A DNA stretch of 64,000 nucleotides, from contig JBGAJM010000001.1 of assembly GCA_044224925.1 (NCBI GenBank), forward strand, positions 113,021 to 177,020. Reading direction: 5' to 3'. This document shows, in pieces, positions 3,114-15,348 of this stretch (position 1 is its first letter; the number at the start of each line of letters is the position of its first letter). The notes under the pieces are model-generated. The model saw only the letters and a list, made by a program, of their open reading frames with translations, made no database searches and was not told the origin of the DNA. This DNA comes from Candidatus Kapaibacterium sp. Lineage in GTDB: Bacteria; Bacteroidota; Ignavibacteria; Kapaibacteriales; Kapaibacteriaceae. A program made the translations under genes and the position numbers.

Positions 3114-4039
3114 TGCACCAACTCGAACATGCGGTGGATCGGACGGACGGCACGTGCTGCTAGCTCTGCATCGATCTCGATGCGCGGTGCAAGTGTGCGC
3201 AAGGCGTTGCGCACACCATCAAGCGTGTTCATCTTCATGTGCGGACATGCACTGCAGGCACATTCTGTCACCTGAAGGGGAGGGGCAGGGATCAAGGTGG
3301 CAAGGGGAGCATGGTGGCGCATCTTGTGCAGAATGCCCACTTCCGTGGCCACAATGAAGGAGTCGTGCGGATGGTCCATCACATACGTCAGCAATGCCGA
3401 CGTCGATCCGATCACATCGGCACGTTCCAGCACGGGCGACGGACACTCCGGATGTGCGAGAATTCGCGCGTTCGGGTTTGCGAGTCGTAGGGTATCGAGC
3501 TGCTGTGCATCGAAGGCGGCATGCACTTCGCATTCCGCATTCCACAGGACCATGGGGCGTCCTGTGCGCTGCTGCAGCCAGGCTCCCAGATGTCGGTCCG
3601 GACCGAACACCAACGGTCGATCGTGGGGAAGAGCGGCGATCACACGTTCTGCATTCGCAGACGTGCAGACCACATCGCTCATGGCCTTCATCTCCAGTCC
3701 ACTGTTCACATAACTCACCACCGTATGATCGGCATGCGCTGCAAGGAATTCGCGATAGGCATCGGGCGGACTCTGTTCCACAAGCGAACACGATGCGTCG
3801 AGGGTTGGTGCAAGCACGATCGTGTCGGGGTTGAGCAGCTTTGCCGTCTCCGCCATGAAGCGCACACCGGCCAGCACGATCACATCGGCCTGCGTCTGTT
3901 GGGCAGCCAAGGCAAGTTGCAGACTATCGCCAACAGCATCGGCCACATCCTGGATCTCAGGTCGTTGATAATAGTGCGCCAACACCACAGCATTGTGTTG
4001 GTGCTTCAGTTCTGCGATCTCATCTACGGTCGACATCAT
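3110..4039 (-). CDS. nadA: quinolinate synthase A
   Basis: Characteristic NadA segments are present (LAHYYQRPEIQDVAD, YVNSGLEMKAMSDVVCTSANAERV, conserved Cys residues). The gene is translationally coupled to nadB downstream. Confidence 0.9.
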   Translation of the reverse strand: MMSTVDEIAELKHQHNAVVLAHYYQRPEIQDVADAVGDSLQLALAAQQTQADVIVLAGVRFMAETAKLLNPDTIVLAPTLDASCSLVEQSPPDAYREFLAAHADHTVVSYVNSGLEMKAMSDVVCTSANAERVIAALPHDRPLVFGPDRHLGAWLQQRTGRPMVLWNAECEVHAAFDAQQLDTLRLANPNARILAHPECPSPVLERADVIGSTSALLTYVMDHPHDSFIVATEVGILHKMRHHAPLATLIPAPPLQVTECACSACPHMKMNTLDGVRNALRTLAPRIEIDAELAARAVRPIHRMFELVQ

Positions 4040-4092: not shown

Positions 4093-6369
4093 TTAATGTA
4101 CGACGTGAACCATGCTGTTGGTCGTCATGTTTCCAACTTGTACACGTAACAGGTACAAACCTGAAGGCAATTGATGCACATCAATGATGTGTTGATGTGT
4201 ACCAGCATCACGTGAGTTCTCGACAGAATTCTGCACCTCATTGCCCGTGACGTCGATCAATCGAAACGTCACACTACTGCGTTCTTGTAGCTGGTAGGTG
4301 ATCGTTGTAGATGACGCACATGGCGCAGGGCTAATGGAAAGGACGTTGCATGCCTGAACTCGTTGCGATGACTCTGGATGATCACTGTGTACTGACGTGA
4401 TCGAAGACATGCTTTGCTTCCAGATGTGCTCGCCATCAGTGAAGAGCTGTGAAGATCCATTGAGACGTGGCAAATACGCGACTGAATTCGCGCCAGGTTC
4501 TGAAACGACAGGCGATACCCGCCAAGTTCTACCATGATCCAAAGACAGAACCACCGCACCATGTGAAGTGCCAGAAGCTAATATGGTATCCCCTTCGGCG
4601 CTGATACATTCTAGAACACCGGTTAGGGGGTAGTCGATGCCGGGAGGGTGGACCGGTGTCCACGAGGCACCCATATCGGTGGACCGAAGGTATCCCGGTG
4701 TACTTGACATTGCAAGCAACTGCCATGTACCATTTGTGTCGTGAACGGCATTGATACCAGACAATCCAAGGCCATTGTAACCCGATGGTTCGGACCACTT
4801 GGTGCCATTGTTGGTAGAACGTACTACAACGCCGTTATAACAGGCGAACAAATTCGTTTCACCGGCATTGGTACGCAGGGCCACCATACCGGTCACAAAG
4901 CCTGCAAAGTCCGATCCCTTGTTTTCCAAGATCCATGTTGTGCCGTAGTCGGTGCTTCTGAAAATGACCATACCATATGCGCTAACGTAAACATCGGTGC
5001 CCCCACCGCCATCGCCCACAGTCGATATGCACTGAATGAAATTGATCGACGCTACTGGTTCCCACGTATCGCCATTTGTGCCACTGCGAAACACTTTGTC
5101 ATTGGTAGTTGCTAGGAGTATTTCTCCACCATTTGCTGTGCTGCAAACGGCGACACTTCGAAGACTCGTTGCGAAGTACGGAGCATGAAGATCGGTCCAA
5201 TGCGCTCCATCATCGTCACTACGAAACAATCCAAAGCCGTACACATGCATAAAGACACTAGGCCCGTTCACACCCTTTTGTGATGTGGCCATAAGGCGGT
5301 ATCCGATCACTTCAAAACCGCTATTCACCTTTAACCATGTTTTTCCTGCATCTGATGAGTGTAAGACCCCGCCTGCAGCATACAGGCCTGCATATATGTG
5401 CTGCTCACTCGTGGAATCCGTGCTTGCGCATATTCGAAAAATGGCCTGGCCAGAATTCACCCTTTGCACCAACTCCCAACTTGCTCCAAGGTCGGTTGAG
5501 CGGACGAGGCCGGCCCCGGTGCCTGCAATGATGCAGGTTCTTCCATCACGATCTGCTGTGATAACGATGGAAAACACCTGCAAGTCGTCAAGACCATCAT
5601 TCGACTTTGTCCACGTCACTCCATCATCATCCGACAGGTAGAATCCTGCAACATAGGTGCCCAGAACGTGCCTGAATCTGTTCGACCCCAGCTTGACCAT
5701 GGCAGATGCATTTACAGCGTTGCTTGGGATGCCAACGCATCGCGACCATGTGGCACCGCTATTCGTCGACCGAAAAGCTCCATACGTGCCAGTACATGCA
5801 TAGACAATCAATCCGCCTACGCCGTCCGGATAGCCGAACAGTTTGGTCCCGTAGAGACCACCTGAAGGTATGTCCAAATAACGCCAATGAGCGCCGTCAT
5901 CAAATGATTGAAATGCTGCGCCCGAGTCCAAACCGCAAAACAGTGTTCGCTCGAACGGTGAACGCTGAGCTACACTTACAGAGTGAACACCCATATTCAT
6001 TAACTGAATATCAACCGGACTGCTTCTACCATCACGCACAACATGATGTTCAATTCCACCTTCAGAGGCTACAAAGAGTTGAACATCACCATCAGCATCT
6101 AAAAAGGTGCATATGTCATTCCGAGTAACACTGCGGTTAGGCAGGCTGAGATCCCTCCATGACGATCCGTTATCTGAAGAACGAAATACCTTGCTATTTA
6201 TCAGAGCAAAGACAGATCCACCGGCTTCTGATATCGAGCGAACTGAGGCACCCTCTATGCTTTCGCATTTCATCCATTGTGCCCGCAAAGGTTGCACGGA
6301 CCAGAACAACGGTACAAGAAGCCAAAGAAAGAGAAGAGGTAAGTTGCGAGGTTGAGGGCAGGTGTTCAT
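4093..6369 (-). CDS. secreted BNR/Asp-box repeat (sortilin/Ycf48-like) protein with a T9SS C-terminal sorting domain
   Basis: Many S-x-D-x-G-x-T-W Asp-box motifs (SDDDGVTW, SDAGKTW, STDYGTTW, STNNGTKW, STDMGASW, SLDHGRTW). I chose the internal start at M40 (MNTCPQPRNLPLLFLWLLVPLFWSVQPLRAQ), which is followed by a signal peptide. The track ORF extends to 6486. The C-terminal about 80 aa have a Por/T9SS CTD pattern. Confidence 0.7.
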   Translation of the reverse strand: MNTCPQPRNLPLLFLWLLVPLFWSVQPLRAQWMKCESIEGASVRSISEAGGSVFALINSKVFRSSDNGSSWRDLSLPNRSVTRNDICTFLDADGDVQLFVASEGGIEHHVVRDGRSSPVDIQLMNMGVHSVSVAQRSPFERTLFCGLDSGAAFQSFDDGAHWRYLDIPSGGLYGTKLFGYPDGVGGLIVYACTGTYGAFRSTNSGATWSRCVGIPSNAVNASAMVKLGSNRFRHVLGTYVAGFYLSDDDGVTWTKSNDGLDDLQVFSIVITADRDGRTCIIAGTGAGLVRSTDLGASWELVQRVNSGQAIFRICASTDSTSEQHIYAGLYAAGGVLHSSDAGKTWLKVNSGFEVIGYRLMATSQKGVNGPSVFMHVYGFGLFRSDDDGAHWTDLHAPYFATSLRSVAVCSTANGGEILLATTNDKVFRSGTNGDTWEPVASINFIQCISTVGDGGGGTDVYVSAYGMVIFRSTDYGTTWILENKGSDFAGFVTGMVALRTNAGETNLFACYNGVVVRSTNNGTKWSEPSGYNGLGLSGINAVHDTNGTWQLLAMSSTPGYLRSTDMGASWTPVHPPGIDYPLTGVLECISAEGDTILASGTSHGAVVLSLDHGRTWRVSPVVSEPGANSVAYLPRLNGSSQLFTDGEHIWKQSMSSITSVHSDHPESSQRVQACNVLSISPAPCASSTTITYQLQERSSVTFRLIDVTGNEVQNSVENSRDAGTHQHIIDVHQLPSGLYLLRVQVGNMTTNSMVHVVH

Positions 6370-6433
6370 GGAACATCCTATGCGAAAAGTAACTGAGGAC
6401 TGTTCGCAACATAGGTCGTTGAGAGGTATAATG

Positions 6434-6584
6434 AACCTTAGCAAAACCTTAGCAAATAGGGAATCCGCACAATCAGACCACTTCATACTTCACGCAACTG
6501 ACCACAGGATGATAGAAGGTGTGATTCATGTAAGCTTAATGAAAGTTGGTGTGTGCCAAGGCTGCTAAGGTTCTGCTAAGGTTA
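6434..6584. promoter_or_regulatory. inverted pair of tandem 11-bp repeats flanking about 105 bp, in a divergent intergenic region
   Basis: Left arm AACCTTAGCAAAACCTTAGCAAA at about 6434-6456. Right arm CTGCTAAGGTTCTGCTAAGGTT at about 6563-6584, which is the reverse complement AACCTTAGCAGAACCTTAGCAG and matches the left arm at about 21 of 23 positions. The element lies between the divergent BNR-protein gene and the DUF1800 gene. Confidence 0.4.
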
Positions 6585-6604
6585 TCCGTAGGTGCGGAAG
6601 CGCT

Positions 6605-8164
6605 ATGATTGTACCGCGACGCAGACGAATCACCTGTTCACTTGAAGTTCTCCATATGCTGGATGTGTTTGACGAGACGAAAGACGGACCGTGGGGCCGG
6701 CCGCACGCAGCTCACCTGTTACGACGGATGATGATCGGCGCCACGCCGCTCGAGATCACTCGGGCTGTTGCCGAAGGCAGAGAGCGCACGATCGACCGAT
6801 TACTGCGACCGTGGGAAGTGCCAATGGATCACGTGGCGCAGCTCGTGGATGGCGATGTGATGGCAGAGATACAGCCGATCGACATTCCCGAGTACCGACA
6901 GTTCTTCGATACAAAGGACCGGCGCTACATCGAGACCGTGCAATGGTGGGCTGGCATCATGATCCGTGGTGAGTTCTCTGCACAGGAGCGTCTCACGCTA
7001 TGGTGGCACATGTGCATCCCTTCGTCGTTCAACGGATCGCATTTCGCAGAGAACATCATCGATCAGAACAAGACCATGCGACAGCACTGTATGGGCAATG
7101 TGCGGACGATGGTGGACGAGCTCGTGCATGGGATGGCGCTGCAGATCTATCTCAGCGGAACGGAGAATGTCTGGAAGCCGGACTACGATGGGATCAATGA
7201 GAACCTCGCGAGGGAACTTCTCGAGTTGTTCTTGCTGGGTCGGCGAGGATCGAACAACGAGCCAAACTATACGCAGTACGACATAACACAGATCGCCCGA
7301 GCGCTCAGCGGCCTCCGCATCCAGGAGTATCATCGTGTGGATGACAAGGGCATCGACTATCTCTATCGCAAGCGGCGGTTGCAATTCCGCGAAGATCATT
7401 GGGACCCGCAAGAGAAGACGATCTTCGGTCATCAAGGGGCTTTCAAGAGCACAGACGTCTTGGACATCCTCTTCACGACCAAGCAACAACAGATCGCCTA
7501 CCATATCTGTTCACGATGGTATCAGAGCTTTGTCAACGAAGTGCTTGCAGATGACGTTGTCGCAGCCATGGCAGACATTCTCCTTGCGAACGACATGAAC
7601 ATCGAACCCGTGATCCGTGCAGTCCTCAACAGTTCGCACTTCTACGAAGCATCTAATCGCATGTCCATTTCCACCCCTGCCTCCATTACCTTCCTTGGTC
7701 AGTTACGATACGCCGCCGTTGGATACATCCCGGATCTGGATGATGTGGAAGGTGGCAAGGAGGAAGACCTCTTCATTCGCCTTCGGAGTATGGGACAATG
7801 CATGTACTATCCGCCCAATGTGTCGGGATGGCCCACCGGCATGAGCACGGTATCGGGAAGTAGCATAGCGTGGCGACTGGAACAGCATCGCAGACTATGG
7901 CAAGGGAAGTTGTACTTCAAAGACTATCCGGGGGGACGTCAGGTGTATCCCATTGAAAGCGCCGACTTCAATGAAATGTACGGACGTGAGGTGTCCATTA
8001 AAGACCTTGCCGCCCTTGCAACCGTCGATCTCCTTGGCTTGAGTGAAGCAGAAGCGAAGCAAGCGGCGGAAGAGCTGTGCGCAGATCTCCCGGGAGATCA
8101 GGATGCTGCACTGCGACAGATCATGACGGCGGTAACGACTTCACCACGCATGTTGTTCTCATGA
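6605..8164 (+). CDS. DUF1800 family protein
   Basis: Contains the HLLRRMMIGATP motif typical of DUF1800 (H-L-L-R-R-x-G-F-G). It sits immediately upstream of a DUF1501 gene with an 8-bp gap, the canonical DUF1800/DUF1501 pairing. The true start may be the internal Met at about 6656. Confidence 0.8.
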   Translation: MIVPRRRRITCSLEVLHMLDVFDETKDGPWGRPHAAHLLRRMMIGATPLEITRAVAEGRERTIDRLLRPWEVPMDHVAQLVDGDVMAEIQPIDIPEYRQFFDTKDRRYIETVQWWAGIMIRGEFSAQERLTLWWHMCIPSSFNGSHFAENIIDQNKTMRQHCMGNVRTMVDELVHGMALQIYLSGTENVWKPDYDGINENLARELLELFLLGRRGSNNEPNYTQYDITQIARALSGLRIQEYHRVDDKGIDYLYRKRRLQFREDHWDPQEKTIFGHQGAFKSTDVLDILFTTKQQQIAYHICSRWYQSFVNEVLADDVVAAMADILLANDMNIEPVIRAVLNSSHFYEASNRMSISTPASITFLGQLRYAAVGYIPDLDDVEGGKEEDLFIRLRSMGQCMYYPPNVSGWPTGMSTVSGSSIAWRLEQHRRLWQGKLYFKDYPGGRQVYPIESADFNEMYGREVSIKDLAALATVDLLGLSEAEAKQAAEELCADLPGDQDAALRQIMTAVTTSPRMLFS

Positions 8165-8171
8165 GGAGACC

Positions 8172-9686
8172 ATGAAACGCAGACAGTTTCTCACATCGGT
8201 AGGGAAGGCAGGATTGGTGCTGCCGTGCATGCAGTCGGGTATGATGCGTGCATTTGCCGCACCAACGGATCAGATGGGACACCTTGCAACCGAGAGTCTC
8301 GGCGGCGAACGGATACTCGTCGTCCTGCGCATGTTCGGTGGGAACGATGGCTTGAACACCATCGTGCCGATTCACGATGACGAATACTATCGTATCCGTG
8401 GAGGAGGTCGACCATATGATCTCTCGATCCCGCGAGAACGCGTACTCCCCATACCCGATGTTGATGGCTATGGCATGCATCCATCGATGGCGCCCCTCAT
8501 GGAGTTGTACAACGAAGGGTCTGTTGCAATTGTGCAAGGGGTTGGCTATCCGAACATGGACCTGTCGCACTTTCGAGGCACGGACATATGGCTGTCGGCA
8601 AGTGATGCGAACGTCTATCAGCAATCGGGGTGGTTAGGACGAATGTTCGACATGGAGAAGTTCGAGAACGAGACGGATCCGTATGCGATAGAGTACGGCG
8701 ATGCTGTTGGGAGGTTGCTGCATGGAGCTCACGGCGTACATGGTCATACCTATCACGCCTCACATCAGTTTGCGGGAAATGAGGACGTACGAGGATTGAA
8801 CGACGGTCATATCGGCGCGAACGATTTCTCGTCGCGGTTCCAGCGGGCGCAAGTTCACGGTCGGTCGATCGAGCGGGCACTTTCTCTTGTCACACAACAG
8901 ACGCGGCCGTATGACAAGGACTCGCCACTAGCCGGCTCGTTGAGAACAACATCACGACTCATTCGCGCGGGTATGTCGACGCAGGTATACATCATCCACG
9001 CCGGTCAGTTCGATACGCATCACCGTCAGCAAGAGGTCCACGCCCAACAACTCGACGAGCTCTTTCAAGGCGTCCATTCGTTCTATCGCGAGTTGCAAGA
9101 TGCAGGCGATGCAGATCGCGTATGTGTGCTTGTCATCAGTGAGTTCGGACGTCGCGTAGAGCCCACCCAAACAGGCACCGACCACGGCACGGCCGCGCCC
9201 GTCTTTCTCATAGGAGGGAAGGTGCAGGGCGGCATGCACGGAACGGCACCGAGTGTCACCGAACTCGATGCTGACGGAAACCTGCTATGGAACGTCGACT
9301 TCCGACAGATCTATTCCTCGATCCTACGTCAATGGTTCCAAGCCTCACCATCAGCCATAGACGAAGTGATCCTACCACGACTCTTTCAACCGCTCCCACT
9401 CTTTGCAGTGTCGAGTCAGCCACGTCATCCATTCGAGCTCACACCCATTCCGTGCAGTGGTCACCTCACGGTCAACGGCACCGCCCTCACGCCGACGAGC
9501 GCATCGGCCGTCATTCGCGACATCAATGGCCGTCAGGTCCTGCAGACCACACTCGATCTTCAAGTGGCAACGCGCATCCCGTTGCCGTCGCTACCCTCCG
9601 GCGTTTACGTTCTCGACATCACAACAACCTCTGCACACTCTGCACCAATGCAGTACCGCACGGCTTTCCCGGTGGTGCGGGTGTGA
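8172..9686 (+). CDS. DUF1501 family protein with a twin-arginine signal and a T9SS C-terminal sorting domain
   Basis: N-terminus MKRRQFLTSVGKAGLVLP carries the Tat consensus RRxFL. FGGNDGLNT motif present. C-terminal about 80 aa (VIRDINGRQVLQ...LPSGVYVLDIT) match the T9SS CTD pattern. Confidence 0.85.
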   Translation: MKRRQFLTSVGKAGLVLPCMQSGMMRAFAAPTDQMGHLATESLGGERILVVLRMFGGNDGLNTIVPIHDDEYYRIRGGGRPYDLSIPRERVLPIPDVDGYGMHPSMAPLMELYNEGSVAIVQGVGYPNMDLSHFRGTDIWLSASDANVYQQSGWLGRMFDMEKFENETDPYAIEYGDAVGRLLHGAHGVHGHTYHASHQFAGNEDVRGLNDGHIGANDFSSRFQRAQVHGRSIERALSLVTQQTRPYDKDSPLAGSLRTTSRLIRAGMSTQVYIIHAGQFDTHHRQQEVHAQQLDELFQGVHSFYRELQDAGDADRVCVLVISEFGRRVEPTQTGTDHGTAAPVFLIGGKVQGGMHGTAPSVTELDADGNLLWNVDFRQIYSSILRQWFQASPSAIDEVILPRLFQPLPLFAVSSQPRHPFELTPIPCSGHLTVNGTALTPTSASAVIRDINGRQVLQTTLDLQVATRIPLPSLPSGVYVLDITTTSAHSAPMQYRTAFPVVRV

Positions 9687-9882
9687 ATGGTCCTTTACAA
9701 ACTGTCAACATCATTGGGTGAAGATCAGAATGAAGTTATTCTATGCTCAATAGTAAATTGTATTCATGTAAGCGTTGGGTACGGAGTTAAGTGGTCTCAC
9801 TAACGCGGTATCGTGTGGACAATGGACGCGGAATCTCCCAGGCAACGCCAATGAGTGATCAAATAGTTGAATCGGGGAAAGA

Positions 9883-10968
9883 ATGAGTTCCAATGTTGAA
9901 TCAATCGTTGTAAGGCTACTCGAAGATATTGACACCAATTTTGGGTCAAGTCGCGAGGCGCTAGATTTACTCAAAGAGAATACTCTGCTTGATGACGAGG
10001 TGTTTCTGCTTGAGGCAGGTCTGCTTGTTAGGCGAATAATTCATGGTAACAAAAGTGAAGCTATTCGGGTAATAGAACATTCAAACATTGTTCAACAGAC
10101 AAGTAACATGTCGTTTGTGTATGGATGCTTACTGAAATATGAAAATGGCAAGACCGATTACGATGAGCTTCTGACCTTGCAAAGAAACCTGAGAAATCAG
10201 TCTGGTTTCACCCCAATTGAGCGACGATTGACGGTGATCGCTTATGTTCTGGCACTTTTAAGCCTACAATTGCCAATCGTTTGTGTCAACTATTTGAGAC
10301 GGAATGAGGTCGACTCAAGTTGCTGTGTAATCCGACTTCTCTCGTGCGAAGTGTATTTTCAACTGTCGGAGTACAGCGTCCTTTCCGAGGAGTTGAAAAC
10401 TTTGCAACCCGGAGTTGGGGCGGATTGGCAGGCCCGAATCGCTGAATTGGCACTTATTAGGAGTGGGAATCTGGAAGATGCTGTAGCAATGGTGTCAAGT
10501 AAAAGCGATACGGGGCTGCCATTGAACGATGACGTTCTAATTGAGTATTGTATCATAAGCTATCGTCAACATTACTTCAACCCAAGATTTGAAGCATTAG
10601 TTGAATCTAGCCCATATGTAAGTAAACATGCACTCCAACTTTACAAAGCGGTGTGCCAATTCACTCAAGGGAATGTGAAGGATGGTCTCAACATACTTCG
10701 GGAAGTACTTGCGAAAATTGACGACTATCTCGTTCAGACTATGTATTTCGAAAATAGCGCAAAGGTGAATGGAGCAACAGTGCTAGCACGCGAAATAGCG
10801 GATTATAAAGAGCTGTACGGAGAAGATGTTTTTTGGTTTGCCGTAGTATGCGCCATTGAATCGGCGCCTGGCACGCTTGTTAACCCCTTCCTTGAAGATC
10901 CAAGCCTTCCATACGATCAGACCGAGTTTTTCACATACTACAGTATCATTAGTCAGGCACTTGGCTGA
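9883..10968 (+). CDS. hypothetical protein (AT-rich island ORF, likely all-alpha)
   Basis: 361-aa ORF in a markedly AT-richer stretch. Codon usage differs from the flanking genes. No motif recognised. Confidence 0.5.
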   Translation: MSSNVESIVVRLLEDIDTNFGSSREALDLLKENTLLDDEVFLLEAGLLVRRIIHGNKSEAIRVIEHSNIVQQTSNMSFVYGCLLKYENGKTDYDELLTLQRNLRNQSGFTPIERRLTVIAYVLALLSLQLPIVCVNYLRRNEVDSSCCVIRLLSCEVYFQLSEYSVLSEELKTLQPGVGADWQARIAELALIRSGNLEDAVAMVSSKSDTGLPLNDDVLIEYCIISYRQHYFNPRFEALVESSPYVSKHALQLYKAVCQFTQGNVKDGLNILREVLAKIDDYLVQTMYFENSAKVNGATVLAREIADYKELYGEDVFWFAVVCAIESAPGTLVNPFLEDPSLPYDQTEFFTYYSIISQALG

Positions 10969-11172
10969 GTGGAGATACCGCCGAATGTGACCACGAGATT
11001 CCGCTACAATGATTCGATTTAGACAGCACTCACATGTCAAAGCAACTGCAATATAGATCACGGTTTAGCCAATCAAGAAACGACATCGAATGGCGGTCAA
11101 CAGCGTGCGGAAAGAAGTGGTCATGGTGCAGGAATCTCCAATGAGGCGGACTTTGTTGAAAGGAGAGTTGCC

Positions 11173-11733
11173 GTGAGTTCTAAACTGAGAATATTCGAGC
11201 CTATTGTTGCCGATGGATGCGAGATTTGCCATCCAATGGATTCTGATGATTTTAACGTTTTTGCCAGGTTGATCAATTGTGTGTCTAGAGTATCCACCTG
11301 GAGGCCCATTCCGATGAAACTAGTTTCTCAAGACGAGGGTGTTGAAGCTTCATACTCAGACTCCCCTTGGTTGGGGGAGCATACACTAATATTTAGGACC
11401 CCATTGAAAGAGGCTCTGGGTGCGCTATTGATGGCGAATGGTGAACTTCTCCCGTTAGTCTGTTCTGAAGCTGATCTCGTTGTTTTCAACGCTACGAGAA
11501 TGATCGACGCACTCAATGAAGAAGAATCAACTTTGTCGCGATTTAGTGGAGGACAGATCTACTGGATCAAGCGCTATGTGTTTCGTCCGGACGTAGTCGA
11601 CGGTGTTGACATATTCAAGATACCCAACCTTACTGTTAGCCCCACGTTTGTAAGCGAACGATTTGTGGATACTTGGAATGCTTGTGGACTCGTTGGCCTT
11701 GACTTTCTACCTGTTTGGGAACCGCGTGGTTGA
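11173..11733 (+). CDS. putative polymorphic-toxin immunity protein (DUF1629 / Imm11-like)
   Basis: 186-aa ORF. The C-terminal segment IFKIPNLTVSPTFVSERFVDTWNACGLVGLDFLPVW resembles, from memory, the conserved C-terminus of DUF1629/Imm11 immunity proteins. It lies in the AT-rich island. Confidence 0.45.
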   Translation: MSSKLRIFEPIVADGCEICHPMDSDDFNVFARLINCVSRVSTWRPIPMKLVSQDEGVEASYSDSPWLGEHTLIFRTPLKEALGALLMANGELLPLVCSEADLVVFNATRMIDALNEEESTLSRFSGGQIYWIKRYVFRPDVVDGVDIFKIPNLTVSPTFVSERFVDTWNACGLVGLDFLPVWEPRG

Positions 11734-11920
11734 TCGATAGCCATTGCGGCAAGCAGGATTGTTCAGAAACTGTCAATGATCCAAAGATTCCCGATACTCA
11801 TGAAAGCACCACCATCACGTGATCAATCGAGGGCCTTTTGCCATGTAAACCTCCATCCGTAATATGAGAAATGAAGGCCATTGGATTGAAAATCAAACGG
11901 CGGAAATAACAAGGTGACTA

Positions 11921-12193
11921 ATGAGGAATACCCAACGAAGTGTCAGAGTTGAGTTTGTTGGAGACATCAATACTGAGTATCCATATCTGGAGGTCTTTTT
12001 GAATGAAGGTGTTGGGCCTTTTATAGAGATAGGTGTATCACCAAGTAAGGAATTGTATTTCAAGTATTGGGCCACTGACGAGGAGATTGTGCTATGTGCG
12101 GATGATATTGAGTATTTGTTATCTGAAGCAAGGGACTTTTTACCCTATGTCCTCAAGAATGAGGAGGATAATCGCCGTCACTATGGGTTGTGA
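11921..12193 (+). CDS. small hypothetical protein (island ORF, 90 aa)
   Basis: ORF with island-typical composition, on the same strand as its neighbours. No recognisable motif. Confidence 0.35.
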   Translation: MRNTQRSVRVEFVGDINTEYPYLEVFLNEGVGPFIEIGVSPSKELYFKYWATDEEIVLCADDIEYLLSEARDFLPYVLKNEEDNRRHYGL

Positions 12194-12335
12194 CTAGAGC
12201 CTCCGTACACGAAGATCAGCTCAATCCATGGGCAGTTGGCAAAGAGTGATGTAGGGTGCGATACTTCCTAGCTCATTGCTAGATTGCATTTGACTGAACG
12301 TCGAAGCGCAGTACTATATATTCACAGTGGTGTGA

Positions 12336-12938
12336 ATGTTAGTGCGCACACGACACGAAATCGACAATATCGGCTCGCCCGTCATAATAGTGAGAAAGAG
12401 AAACATGGATCAGTTAATTGACATAATGACCGACGTCGATCACTTACTGACTCGGCACGATTTTCAATTGCAAGAGCGATCGGACTTCCTCCTTTCGTAT
12501 GTCAAGAACAATTTGGAAATACGAATTGGTCACAATGTACGAGAGAACTCAAACATCTTTTTCTATGGTGTGCAAGGCTGCACTGCATTTGAGATCACTG
12601 ATCGACTCATTAAAGAGTGCTTTAAATCTGATGTTAGAGTTAATGATCTCACCCTGCCAAAGTTTGCTGAGAATTTGTATGTGTTGTTAAGTGGTGCAGG
12701 AAAAGTGCTCTTGGATGGTGATATAGACACTGTTCTTGGACTTTTACAATATCAAAGGCGAATAGCGACCGAGTACAGCAATGAGTTACTTCATCTTCAA
12801 TACGACCGTATTGTAGAGGAAGCATGGAGGGCAAGGGAGTATCAGAAAGTCATTGAGTATTTGTTGAAAATAGGCGAAGTCAATATGACAAGATCACAGG
12901 GGCTAAAGTTAGAAATAGCCAGACGCAGGGTCGAGTGA
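12336..12938 (+). CDS. hypothetical protein (island ORF, possible immunity-type protein)
   Basis: 200-aa ORF in the AT-rich island. An alternative start at the internal Met (MDQLIDIM) at about 12405 is possible. Confidence 0.45.
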   Translation: MLVRTRHEIDNIGSPVIIVRKRNMDQLIDIMTDVDHLLTRHDFQLQERSDFLLSYVKNNLEIRIGHNVRENSNIFFYGVQGCTAFEITDRLIKECFKSDVRVNDLTLPKFAENLYVLLSGAGKVLLDGDIDTVLGLLQYQRRIATEYSNELLHLQYDRIVEEAWRAREYQKVIEYLLKIGEVNMTRSQGLKLEIARRRVE

Positions 12939-13232
12939 AGCATCGTTTGCAAAGTGATCGTGTGCGACCGTATACGCCATCAGCCAAGATAGGACACACA
13001 AGAGAGCTCATGTTGAGTGAATTATGCCATCTCAGCATCGCATACGAATTCATCGCACTTCGTCAGAGAGTGCTCGTAAAGGCGTATGAAAGGCACGTTG
13101 CTCACGATAGGAGTCGACATCAACAAGACGGAGAATGGTCAAATGTTGTCGTAAATTCATGAGCACTACGCTTCCAGTGATCGTTGGCAGGTTCCGATCT
13201 CACTCGGTGTTTAGTCGAATATCACCACTTCT

Positions 13233-13499
13233 TTGGGTTACAGACTATCTGAACCAAAGTCTTTACTCACCGACAACTATATTGCCGGGAATTCAATGTG
13301 CTTTAAACAAATGTTGGCAATCGGACAAATGCAGTCAGATTATAGTCTGCGTAATCCGCCTGGAACGGTTTGGCACCACCCAGGCGACAATCCTGATGTG
13401 ATGCGTCTTTTGCGAGTGGAAGAGCTTGCCAACCTACATATACAACCGGTGCTTCATCCGAACGGCGCCGGTGGATACAGGAAAATCTATGTCCCCTGA
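13233..13499 (+). CDS. orphan polymorphic-toxin C-terminal module: WHH-type HNH/EndoVII-fold nuclease domain (no N-terminal delivery region)
   Basis: 88-aa ORF with a TTG start. It contains GTVWHHPGDNPDVMRLLRVEELANLHIQPVLHPNGAGG, which gives a WHH motif followed by Asn/His residues consistent with a beta-beta-alpha-Me fold. The frame opens only about 18 nt upstream (stop at 13212-13214). Its stop TGA at 13497-13499 overlaps the ATG at 13489 of the next gene. Confidence 0.5.
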   Translation: MGYRLSEPKSLLTDNYIAGNSMCFKQMLAIGQMQSDYSLRNPPGTVWHHPGDNPDVMRLLRVEELANLHIQPVLHPNGAGGYRKIYVP

Positions 13500-14112
13500 T
13501 CTCATTCGCAAGCAGTCAATTGAGACGGCATCGCGTCTCGGTTATTCAACTAACCACGCGTTGCCGCTCTTAGACGATGTTCAAAACTTGAGAACGATTG
13601 ATGAATCCGTCAACCGCCTCCTGTGCCTGAATGCAGTGGCTGCATGCGCGTACGGCTTCGATAGGCACAAGGCCGTGGAATGGCTGCGGCAGGAAGGCGT
13701 ATTTGATGAACTGGCGACATCAGAACGTCGGTTTATTGAGAACAGTGACGGTGATCCCATTCGCTTTCAAGTTCAGGTCGAAGGGTTATGGGCATTAGCG
13801 TGGGCACTTGGTATTGTGCCTCAACTTGACTTCGGGGAGTACTGTGACGACAATTTCGTCATCCTGATGCCGAATATAAGAAGCGGAGAAACAAGCGACG
13901 TCCTACGCTCGAAGATCAATCCTCGCACAACCGTCGAAGTCCTTGCGGCCTGTGATCTTGCGTATTGTCTTCATTGGGCGGCCAGAGAGGCTCTACTAAC
14001 CGGAGGCAAACTGCCTGGAGATGTGCAACTGTACGTCATCGAAGAAAGAAGGCGCATGCTAGAATGGTTAATTGGTGAAGAGGAATGGGATGAAGTAACA
14101 CTCGATACATAG
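13489..14112 (+). CDS. putative cognate immunity protein for the WHH toxin module
   Basis: ATG at 13489 overlaps the toxin stop (ATGTCCCCTGA). 207 aa. The track ORF starts earlier, at a TTG at 13426. No family assigned. Confidence 0.5.
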   Translation: MSPDLIRKQSIETASRLGYSTNHALPLLDDVQNLRTIDESVNRLLCLNAVAACAYGFDRHKAVEWLRQEGVFDELATSERRFIENSDGDPIRFQVQVEGLWALAWALGIVPQLDFGEYCDDNFVILMPNIRSGETSDVLRSKINPRTTVEVLAACDLAYCLHWAAREALLTGGKLPGDVQLYVIEERRRMLEWLIGEEEWDEVTLDT

Positions 14113-14488
14113 TCTGACGTTGCAATGTGCAGCGACGTCGAGCCGCTATTGTGTGAGGCAATGTCATTTAACTTAGACAACTGTCGATACGTCATTCAGT
14201 TAAGTGTCGCCACTTTCATTTATGCGCACAGGTAAGTCTCCAGGCCGGTCGCCCTCCATGGTAACTATGGATTGAATGAGATAGGGCAAAGGTCGATAGA
14301 TTGGCCAACACACTTCACCACGTAACACTTCGCCACGTGATGCATCGTGTAATTCTTCAATGCGCATTTCTAGATTTCATCTGCCTGGACGTTGATATGC
14401 AGTACTACGTGGTCATTGTGAGGCGGAAGATCGTTGGCATATGACGCAGAGTCGAGCTACTAGAACCCGAACAAAGAGGAAAAGACTG

Positions 14489-14995
14489 ATGAACAGAATG
14501 ATGAACAAGATGTTGTTCGTTCTCACAATTGCGGCTTTCTTCCCTCGAGAAGTAGAAACCTGCTCTTGTGTCGGTGGTGTGCCAAATATATCTAGATCGC
14601 TGAGCAACTTTGAAACAGCATTCATCGGAGTATGCCGTTCTTCAGAGGTGGATACCTTGATCACTTACATTCGAAAACCATTTCGCGATACGATCAAAAG
14701 CGTCGTGTCAACCTCACAGTTTGTCGTTAAGTATGGACTCAAGAATAGTCGGAGAATGGACAACATCACCGTCAGGTCACCGATTGAGAGTAATGCATGT
14801 GGCGTGCACTTTACGGTCGGTGGGTCGTACATTGTTTTCGGTGACGATACAAGGAGTCGCATGCGATATAGCCTGAATGACACAACCGTATTCGTTCTAG
14901 AGGTCAGCAAGTGCAGTGCGACTCAAGTCACCACGAAATCAGCGGTTGATACGTTGCGGAGGCTCACGGGAATGAAGATTGCATTTCCGAAATGA
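14489..14995 (+). CDS. hypothetical secreted protein (signal peptide MNRMMNKMLFVLTIAAFF)
   Basis: ORF 14441-14995, with a hydrophobic signal-like segment after the internal Met at 14489. Last ORF of the island before the tRNA-Lys terminator. Confidence 0.45.
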   Translation: MNRMMNKMLFVLTIAAFFPREVETCSCVGGVPNISRSLSNFETAFIGVCRSSEVDTLITYIRKPFRDTIKSVVSTSQFVVKYGLKNSRRMDNITVRSPIESNACGVHFTVGGSYIVFGDDTRSRMRYSLNDTTVFVLEVSKCSATQVTTKSAVDTLRRLTGMKIAFPK

Positions 14996-15236
14996 CATCA
15001 GATGAAGGTCTCTTCTTTTGTTGATGGCAAAGACCATCTCGGCCAACGAACCATCAGTCGAACTTTGTATTGTAGTATAGGGAGCAAACCCAAGACGAGG
15101 AAGTGATCGATAAGATCGAGCACATTGATTGGTGTGTGACATCTCGCATGTTCGTTGTTTCGCGCGTTCCTTCCAGAGTGACATGCAAACGGACTCTACG
15201 AAGTCAGGCCGTATTCGGAAGGTGCAGCGACAACGC

Positions 15237-15272
15237 AAAAAGCCGCACCAACAATGTTGATGCGGCTTTTCT
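15237..15272. terminator. bidirectional rho-independent terminator hairpin (AAAAA-GCCGCA-loop-TGCGGC-TTTT)
   Basis: A perfect 6-bp GC-rich stem flanked by an A-run upstream and a T-run downstream. It lies directly 3' of tRNA-Lys on the minus strand, and the + strand ORF 14441..14995 (last island ORF) ends about 240 nt upstream of it. Confidence 0.6.
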
Positions 15273-15275
15273 CTG

Positions 15276-15348
15276 TGACCCCGTTGGGACTCGAACCCAA
15301 GACCCTTTGATTAAAAGTCAAATGCTCTACCAGCTGAGCTACGGGATC
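15276..15348 (-). tRNA. tRNA-Lys (anticodon UUU)
   Basis: The reverse complement GATCCCGTAGCTCAGCTGGTAGAGCATTTGACTTTTAATCAAAGGGTCTTGGGTTCGAGTCCCAACGGGGTCA folds as a cloverleaf: 7-bp acceptor stem, D-loop AGCTGGTA, anticodon stem TTTGA/TCAAA with loop CTTTTAA, T-loop TTCGAGT. It closely resembles canonical bacterial tRNA-Lys. CCA is not encoded. Confidence 0.85.

Follow-up and report, generated by a model that had tools for sequence, protein, structure and literature searches.

Paired tandem repeats between divergent genes for secreted proteins in a Candidatus Kapaibacterium genome resemble two separate activator boxes

Introduction

Head-to-tail half-sites that lie one helical turn apart and abut a weak −35 element are a hallmark of OmpR/PhoB-type winged-helix activators, and the tandem heptamer repeats of SARP regulators, likewise with an 11-bp period, sit at the −35 region of activator-dependent promoters. 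Here we describe a pair of tandem repeats in 64,000 nucleotides of a Candidatus Kapaibacterium sp. contig (JBGAJM010000001.1, positions 113,021 to 177,020; this whole stretch is called the window, and its first nucleotide is position 1), located between a minus-strand gene for a BNR-repeat protein and a plus-strand DUF1800–DUF1501 operon. Judged from its sequence, each repeat is, with moderate confidence, a separate activator site through which the BNR gene and the DUF1800–DUF1501 operon would be co-regulated, the likeliest binder being an OmpR/PhoB-type regulator.

The CiaR box of streptococci, NTTAAG-N5-TTTAAG, is placed 10 nt from the −10 element at several unlinked promoters of one regulon (PMC3091779). 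The pmra-box, XTTAAY-N5-XTTAAY, with the half-sites CTTAAT and CCTAAG at Klebsiella pbgP, replaces the −35 element; its TAA bases are read by PmrA, and RNA polymerase is recruited in a class-II-like manner (PMC10570014). On pstS, PhoB binds from −25 to −41 (PMC10570014).

Like the pmra-boxes of PmrA/BasR in Klebsiella and Salmonella (pbgP, ugd and pmrCAB), the box in the window is a direct hexamer repeat with an N5 spacer and an 11-bp period, and its half-site GCTAAG is one base apart from CCTAAG. It differs from them in lying about one helical turn further upstream and in a conserved core that extends 3′ (TAAGGTT); moreover, the organism is Bacteroidota-like and bears a type IX secretion system (T9SS), and no cognate regulator is linked to the box. 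With the CiaR box it shares the direct-repeat grammar, a nearly identical half-site (CTAAG, against TTAAG) and a fixed distance to a −10 element, here a predicted one; the −10-like hexamer lies 23 nt, not 10, from the G of CTAAG. Half-sites of the (T/C)TAAG class are found both in the window (GCTAAG) and in the first unit of a distant ortholog, L006 (ATTAAG). The Pho box of PhoB is likewise built of direct repeats in tandem, 11 bp from one to the next, which in activator-dependent promoters overlap or abut the −35 element; the period is that of the box in the window, but the half-site here is unrelated to CTGTCAT and no pst or pho genes lie nearby. Phosphate control is conceivable, as a speculation, given the alkaline-phosphatase-like superfamily of DUF1501. 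Full-text literature searches for GCTAAGGTT and AACCTTAGC returned primers and unrelated matches only.

Results

Two equally oriented tandem boxes precede divergent genes

The first-pass annotation of this DNA had reported near-perfect inverted copies of a tandemly duplicated 11-mer between a minus-strand BNR gene for a T9SS cargo protein and the plus-strand DUF1800–DUF1501 operon. Both the repeats and the flanking genes proved to be as described, except that the right arm had been placed one base off. The left arm, AACCTTAGCAAAACCTTAGCA, reads TGCTAAGGTT-T-TGCTAAGGTT on the minus strand, and the right arm, TGCTAAGGTTCTGCTAAGGTT, reads TGCTAAGGTT-C-TGCTAAGGTT on the plus strand (6562–6583 if its leading C is included; Table 1). 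The arms are 21 nt long, complementary at 20 of 21 positions and 108 nt apart, and each repeats one 11-mer exactly in tandem, with 11 nt from one start of TGCTAAGGTT to the next in both. When up to three mismatches were allowed, the 21-mer had two sites in the window, namely the arms themselves, against no match in 100 dinucleotide shuffles. The perfect 10-mer TGCTAAGGTT occurs four times in the 64 kb, each time inside the 150 bp spanned by the paired arms. Read toward its own downstream gene, either arm is 5′-TGCTAAGGTTnTGCTAAGGTT-3′, and the apparent inverted repeat is therefore a pair of equally oriented copies before divergent genes.

A −10-like hexamer lies at a fixed distance from the box

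Four independent promoters, the right and left ones of the window and those of the DUF1800 orthologs L005 and L006, were aligned on the second TAAGGT, and offsets from +8 to +49 were scored against TATAAT. At offset +27, that is, 21 nt after the second TAAGGT, the −10-like hexamers TATGAT, TATGTT, TAGATT and GATATT scored 17/24, with A2 and T6 present in all four, while every other offset scored at most 10/24. The layout common to the four promoters is thus TAAGGTT-N4-TAAGGT-N21-(TAnnnT −10-like hexamer). In three of the four, a −35 hexamer placed 17 bp upstream of the −10 hexamer would be a poor one. No similarity exists between the 21-nt spacers of the right and left window promoters; therefore the arms did not arise by recent duplication of a single promoter, and box and hexamer are all that they have in common. 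If transcription starts about 7 nt past the hexamer, at the predicted positions given in Table 1, the two-unit box would be centred near −41.5. Both hexamers sit on the gene side of the element, outside the repeats, and a combined sigma-70 promoter and terminator scan of the 108-bp segment between the repeats revealed neither a promoter-like site nor a terminator. Inspection by eye found no TAnnTTTG on either strand of this segment.

The right box is conserved with the DUF1800 operon, and the left box lies in an insertion

The protein cluster of DUF1800 contains two close relatives, L052 and L053, with at least 90% amino-acid identity. Each has a single box before DUF1800 (CTGCTAAGGTTCTGCTAAGGTG in L052 and CTGCTAAGGTTTTGCTAAGGTA in L053), with no inverted partner and no BNR gene. 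Single tandem sites were also found upstream of DUF1800 in the more divergent L005 (aaCTAAGGTTtccaTAAGGTgtg; 52% amino-acid identity in DUF1800) and L006 (cattTAAGGTTttcaTAAGGTgtc; 48%). In these two, TAAGGTT-N4-TAAGGTG is retained and the remaining intergenic sequence is unrelated to that of the window; the whole intergenic region of L006 measures 49 bp. The 11-bp start-to-start spacing is kept in all four relatives. We further scanned for TAAGGT-N5-TAAGGT with up to two mismatches in the window and in DUF1800 loci that had been fetched without reference to the pattern, and the sites found lay solely at the window and DUF1800-ortholog promoters.

Compared with L052, the window carries an insertion of about 2.4 kb, which includes the BNR gene with its promoter as well as the left box. 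The right junction of the insertion is approximate (6505–6516), falling between the two arms. At 49.8%, the inserted DNA is lower in GC than its flanks (57.8% and 55.5%). The right-hand ~50 bp of the segment between the arms is diverged yet significantly alignable with the sequence that precedes the L052 box (score 9; shuffled sequences had a mean of −7.9 and a standard deviation of 3.7). In L053, which also lacks nadB–nadA, BLASTN homology to the window begins exactly at the box, at position 6562. Over 6300–6700, a second assembly of the strain, made independently (Logan, run SRR28480386), has the identical sequence in the same orientation. On these comparisons the two arms are not one unit: the left one apparently arrived with the insertion, and the right one stands alone in the relatives. 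A BNR cassette carrying a box-bearing promoter would have been inserted beside the resident box-bearing promoter of DUF1800, and the look of an inverted repeat would have arisen because this insertion left two box-bearing promoters back to back.

Similar boxes adjoin two-component operons in other lineages

The pattern GCTAAGGTTNNGCTAAGGTT was scanned over one genome per GTDB species, a set to which the source genome does not belong, with minisatellite arrays set aside. The scan revealed a GCTAAGGTT-NN-GCTAAGGTT box directly 3′ of operons for an OmpR-family response regulator and a histidine kinase (RR–HK), and 5′ of the target operon, in two independent lineages. In four metagenome-assembled genomes (MAGs) of Clostridia (L009, L012, L021 and L027), the order is RR–HK, box, 10 nt, a −10 element (TATTCT or TATCCT), ribosome-binding site and a gene for a VTC-domain protein, with the N5 and N10 spacings exactly those of the CiaR box; in a Desulfobacula MAG (L018), RR–HK is followed by the box and feoAB. 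The Clostridia and Desulfobacula loci probably represent two-component regulons, so far uncharacterised, that use a CiaR/PmrA-like box. They occupy L009:1927–3898, with orthologs in the other three Clostridia MAGs, and L018:1474–3644; the VTC-domain target in Clostridia is polyphosphate-related.

An exact 22-mer recurs on mobile DNA of other phyla

The left arm is identical to the 22-mer TTGCTAAGGTTTTGCTAAGGTT, exact copies of which stand between dissimilar flanks in Bacteroidota, Gemmatimonadota and Acidobacteriota (L031:6895–6916, L038:992–1012, L048:1426–1446, L015:6732–6753, which equals L046:2653–2673, and L014:300–321). The usual place of the 22-mer is an arm of a tRNA-integrating element or the position immediately 5′ of a tyrosine integrase gene, and it always aims at the tRNA or integrase gene. 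In the Bacteroidota MAG L031 it belongs to an integrated element of 5.6 kb and lies 57 bp from the tRNA-Leu(UAA) copy at attR, and the degenerate copies TGCTAACGG and TGCTAATGGTT stand immediately upstream of the integrase gene (int). This element also contains open reading frames (ORFs) without known function and an M78/ImmA-like ORF, with the tandem box before attR. Related copies precede tRNA-Leu genes in L038 and L048. In the Acidobacteriaceae MAG L015, the same sequence as L046, an integrase ORF follows 17 nt after the 22-mer, and a tRNA-like fragment lies about 210 bp away from it. The −10-like hexamer at +27 was found at none of the mobile-element copies, the 21-mer pattern had no match in IMG/VR, and PHROGs annotation of the box-adjacent genes of L031 and L014 was uninformative. 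These copies may be arm-type or excisionase sites, outward- or integrase-facing regulatory sites, or targets of a conserved host factor.

In Gemmatimonadaceae (L022, L042 and, twice, L035), a conserved block of about 170 nt has the 22-mer as its 5′ edge and a T-arm and acceptor like those of a tRNA at its other end. Beyond the block the sequences are unrelated; for one of the L035 copies (L035b), a terminator-like hairpin stands there. The blocks lie at L035:2590–2765 and L035:5280–5457 (minus strand), 2.7 kb apart, L022:6250–6437 and L042:440–618, and contain four CCGGACA-like repeats and the T-arm GCGGG-TTCAAAT-CCCGC. ARAGORN recognised no tRNA in the block, and no Rfam family reached threshold. 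It could be an unannotated tRNA-like small RNA or a decayed att site.

Neighbouring genes and other features

The features are collected in Table 1. The start of the BNR gene is most likely 6369 rather than 6486: it yields a signal peptide and matches the call in the independent Logan contig. The BNR protein has no close homolog, the best match having 26–29% identity, and thus offers no promoter for comparison. For DUF1800, the start at 6656 is most likely the correct one, not that of the longest ORF, whose ATG at 6605 falls within the predicted −10 hexamer. In L053, at 3930–3965, a conserved N-terminal Trp codon of DUF1800 reads TAG; this copy is therefore a truncated gene, a pseudogene or a sequencing error. 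In L055 and L056 (both 5700–6000), a tRNA gene lies directly upstream of DUF1800, with no tandem box, and a gene for a LexA-like repressor follows a few kb downstream.

Within the segment between the arms, two 15-nt direct repeats at 6509–6523 (ATGATAGAAGGTGTG) and 6539–6553 (ATGAAAGTTGGTGTG) lie 30 bp apart, and the former includes GAAGGTGTG, similar to the TAAGGTGTG half-site of L005 and L006; they may be weak upstream half-sites of the DUF1800 promoter. Beyond the operon, the region from DUF1501 to tRNA-Lys(UUU) (9687–15274; the tRNA gene occupies 15275–15348) is low in GC (45.7%) and encodes Imm11 and DUF4272 immunity-like proteins and several ORFs without family. Its genes are reordered in L052 and replaced in L053. 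It looks like a variable island of the polymorphic-toxin immunity type, and no integrase or tRNA duplication was seen in it.

Table 1. Coordinates of the tandem boxes, predicted promoter elements, flanking genes and related features (window positions unless a locus is named)
Feature	Position	Strand	Remarks
Left tandem box	6434..6454	−	Aims at the BNR gene; inside the insertion without counterpart in L052 and L053
Right tandem box	6563..6583	+	Aims at DUF1800; single copy in L052 and L053; TAAGGTT-N4-TAAGGTG in L005 and L006
Spacer between the boxes, 108 bp	6455..6562	.	Upstream (beyond about −50) of both promoters
BNR −10-like hexamer TATGTT	6408..6413	−	21 nt downstream of the second TAAGGT; predicted transcription start ~6401
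DUF1800 −10-like hexamer TATGAT	6604..6609	+	21 nt after the second TAAGGT; conserved in L052 and L053; predicted transcription start ~6616
Third degenerate in-phase unit GTAGGT (CGTAGGT)	6588..6593	+	Conserved in L052 and L053; weak equivalents in L005 and L006
Insertion of ~2.4 kb relative to L052	4085..6510	.	From BLASTN; includes BNR gene, BNR promoter and left box
BNR/Sortilin-Vps10 repeat protein gene	4093..6369	−	758 aa; N-terminal signal peptide; T9SS C-terminal sorting domain
DUF1800 gene	6656..8164	+	Start from ortholog alignment; listed ORF starts at 6605
DUF1501 gene	8172..9686	+	Second gene of the operon; alkaline-phosphatase-like superfamily; T9SS C-terminal domain
L031 integrated element	L031:1296-7060		Intact tRNA-Leu(UAA) 1296-1384; integrase 1467-2522; 86-bp tRNA direct repeat (attR) 6973-7060

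Discussion

The arrangement of half-sites, hexamer and orthologous promoters gives good support to a cis-regulatory element of an ordinary kind, which we class as probably working like an OmpR/PhoB-type box. The half-sites (core TAAGGT; here TGCTAAGGTT) are arranged head to tail, one helical turn of 11 bp apart. We infer the binding, the OmpR-type nature of the binder, the activation and the positions of the transcription starts as follows. Upon some signal, a regulator would bind both boxes as a head-to-tail dimer centred near −41.5, and the bound dimer would recruit RNA polymerase to promoters that are otherwise weak and have a weak −35 element. The best candidate is a winged-helix response regulator of the OmpR/PhoB type, whose gene would lie elsewhere in the genome; the grammar of the published boxes and the RR–HK operons that adjoin the box in two other lineages both speak for this type. 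One factor would thereby co-induce the BNR gene and DUF1800–DUF1501, and the BNR protein and DUF1501 would be exported via the T9SS. The first-pass annotation had offered paired operator sites of a dimeric or tetrameric regulator as an alternative. Of this proposal, sites for a multimeric regulator at both divergent units are retained, while in place of a paired operator of palindromic type there appear to be two independent tandem direct-repeat sites.

Several observations weigh against an OmpR/PhoB-type activator. Neither the 64-kb window nor the orthologous loci encode a response regulator or any other protein with a REC or Trans_reg_C domain, and phmmer searches with two OmpR-family regulators matched none of the window ORFs. 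The box stands about one helical turn (11–13 nt) further from the −10 element than in CiaR and PmrA promoters, and the third in-phase unit that would bridge this gap is present at the DUF1800 promoter and absent from the BNR promoter. The −10 elements and transcription starts are themselves predictions only. Orthologs of intermediate identity (L002–L004, 56–58% amino-acid identity) and more distant DUF1800 homologs (L054–L056, 30–35% identity) lack the box, so the association of box and operon is real and confined to one clade. In addition, the exact 22-mer is also found in att arms of integrative elements of other phyla without the hexamer at +27. Because of these foreign att-arm copies, we leave a minority of the weight on a binder other than an OmpR-type protein and on the following idea of a portable module. 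In that idea, which we regard as unlikely, TTGCTAAGGTTTTGCTAAGGTT is a 22-bp regulatory module of one conserved, undescribed DNA-binding factor in three phyla, carried horizontally and wiring incoming genes into a host regulon that includes DUF1800–DUF1501. Its carriers may be the arms of tRNA-integrating elements (facing int, or outward across attR into the tRNA), the tRNA-like block of Gemmatimonadaceae and the BNR cassette.

The binder might instead be another kind of protein, with the box serving as an upstream element for an alternative sigma factor or as the target of a conserved host factor (IHF-like, ribbon-helix-helix or Xis-like) at promoters and att arms alike. We consider this doubtful, although the recurrence of TTGCTAAGGTTTTGCTAAGGTT across phyla with dissimilar flanks would be easier to reconcile with a DNA-binding protein of very high conservation than with a regulator particular to one lineage, and the conserved blocks of Gemmatimonadaceae start exactly at the box. 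The reverse complement TAGCAAAACCTTA is one mismatch away from the Escherichia coli IHF consensus, WATCAANNNNTTR. However, distant orthologs keep both half-sites fully, including positions beyond any IHF-like core, and IHF was rejected as a candidate since it leaves this conservation unexplained. By eye, the element matches none of the sigma-54, ECF, sigma-32 and Bacteroidetes −33/−7 consensus sequences, nor was there a convincing match to sigma-H, the alphaproteobacterial LexA box GTTC-N7-GTTC or the cyanobacterial Pho box; a spacer of 21 nt is too long for TAAGGT to be a −35 hexamer. Adjacency to RR–HK operons in two lineages likewise favours OmpR-type proteins. A role in recombination, as arm-type sites of an integrase, excisionase sites or mobile-cassette scars that mark the BNR insertion junction, also has points in its favour. 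In lambda, Int has arm-type sites and the Xis sites X1, X1.5 and X2 are arranged head to tail in an att arm; the tandem direct repeats of such attP arms, spaced by about one turn, match the place of the 22-mer in the L031 and L015 elements. The same 22-mer stands in att arms or beside integrases (L031, L015/L046), the insertion junction falls between the two arms, and the indel breakpoints of L052 and L053 abut the right box. Unlike at a lambda-type attP arm, however, neither an integrase nor an att core is seen in the window, and no tRNA is duplicated there. BLASTP with mobile-element-locus ORFs of at least 60 aa, three integrases among them, detected no integrase homolog in the window; none is found among the larger annotated ORFs over ~1.9–19.5 kb, and the window contains no duplicated tRNA-Lys att fragment. 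The box-adjacent integrases share only 25–34% identity, which makes a common exact arm-site specificity unlikely, and viral sequences in IMG/VR gave no match, as noted above. The right box, in turn, has stayed with the DUF1800 operon in different genera and keeps a constant distance from the −10-like hexamer, which is the behaviour of a promoter. On balance, a recombination-related function is distinctly unlikely.

The first-pass annotation had likened the element to invertible promoter switches of the Bacteroidetes/fim type, in which a recombinase would flip the 108-bp segment and redirect transcription. Those switches do have inverted repeats of about 20 bp around a short intergenic segment, just as 21-bp near-perfect inverted repeats bracket ~108 bp between divergent genes here, and a recombinase could act in trans. 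The comparison found no support in closer analysis, and we now hold inversion to be extremely improbable. L052, L053, L005 and L006 are single-armed and the left arm lies within the insertion, so the pair is not conserved; the repeats themselves are built of tandem direct-repeat half-sites, which L005 and L006 carry as single sites. One and the same orientation is seen in the window, derived from NCBI, and in the independent Logan assembly, and no recombinase was found in the window. As the segment contains no promoter and the −10-like hexamers are outside the repeats, a flip would alter neither promoter and would be functionally silent. To our knowledge, 108 bp is also shorter than known invertible switches. 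Very improbable, too, is that the arms are functionless local duplications or the terminal inverted repeats of an element like a miniature inverted-repeat transposable element (MITE). Slippage can create tandem 11-mers, and other genomes do contain minisatellite arrays of this unit; against this, four identical 10-mers stand in two unrelated sequence contexts, and the box is conserved across genera before the same operon with a fixed spacing to a −10-like hexamer. A MITE was rejected on the absence of a target-site duplication at 6433/6584 and of further copies in the 64 kb, and on the single-armed relatives. An RNA element was rejected as well: an Rfam scan of window 6000–7000 with E up to 1 found no RNA family, and L006 has no room for an upstream promoter.

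For scans based on sequence alone, this locus holds a caution, in that back-to-back promoters with a common activator box can mimic the signature of an invertible switch. If two activator-dependent promoters are indeed what the window contains, the rule TAAGGTT-N4-TAAGGT-N21-TAnnnT could be scanned across genomes of the lineage to lead to the regulon and its regulator. The element would then provide a testable regulatory handle on two poorly understood kinds of T9SS-secreted proteins, the very widespread DUF1800–DUF1501 pair, whose function is unknown, and the orphan BNR/Sortilin-like protein.

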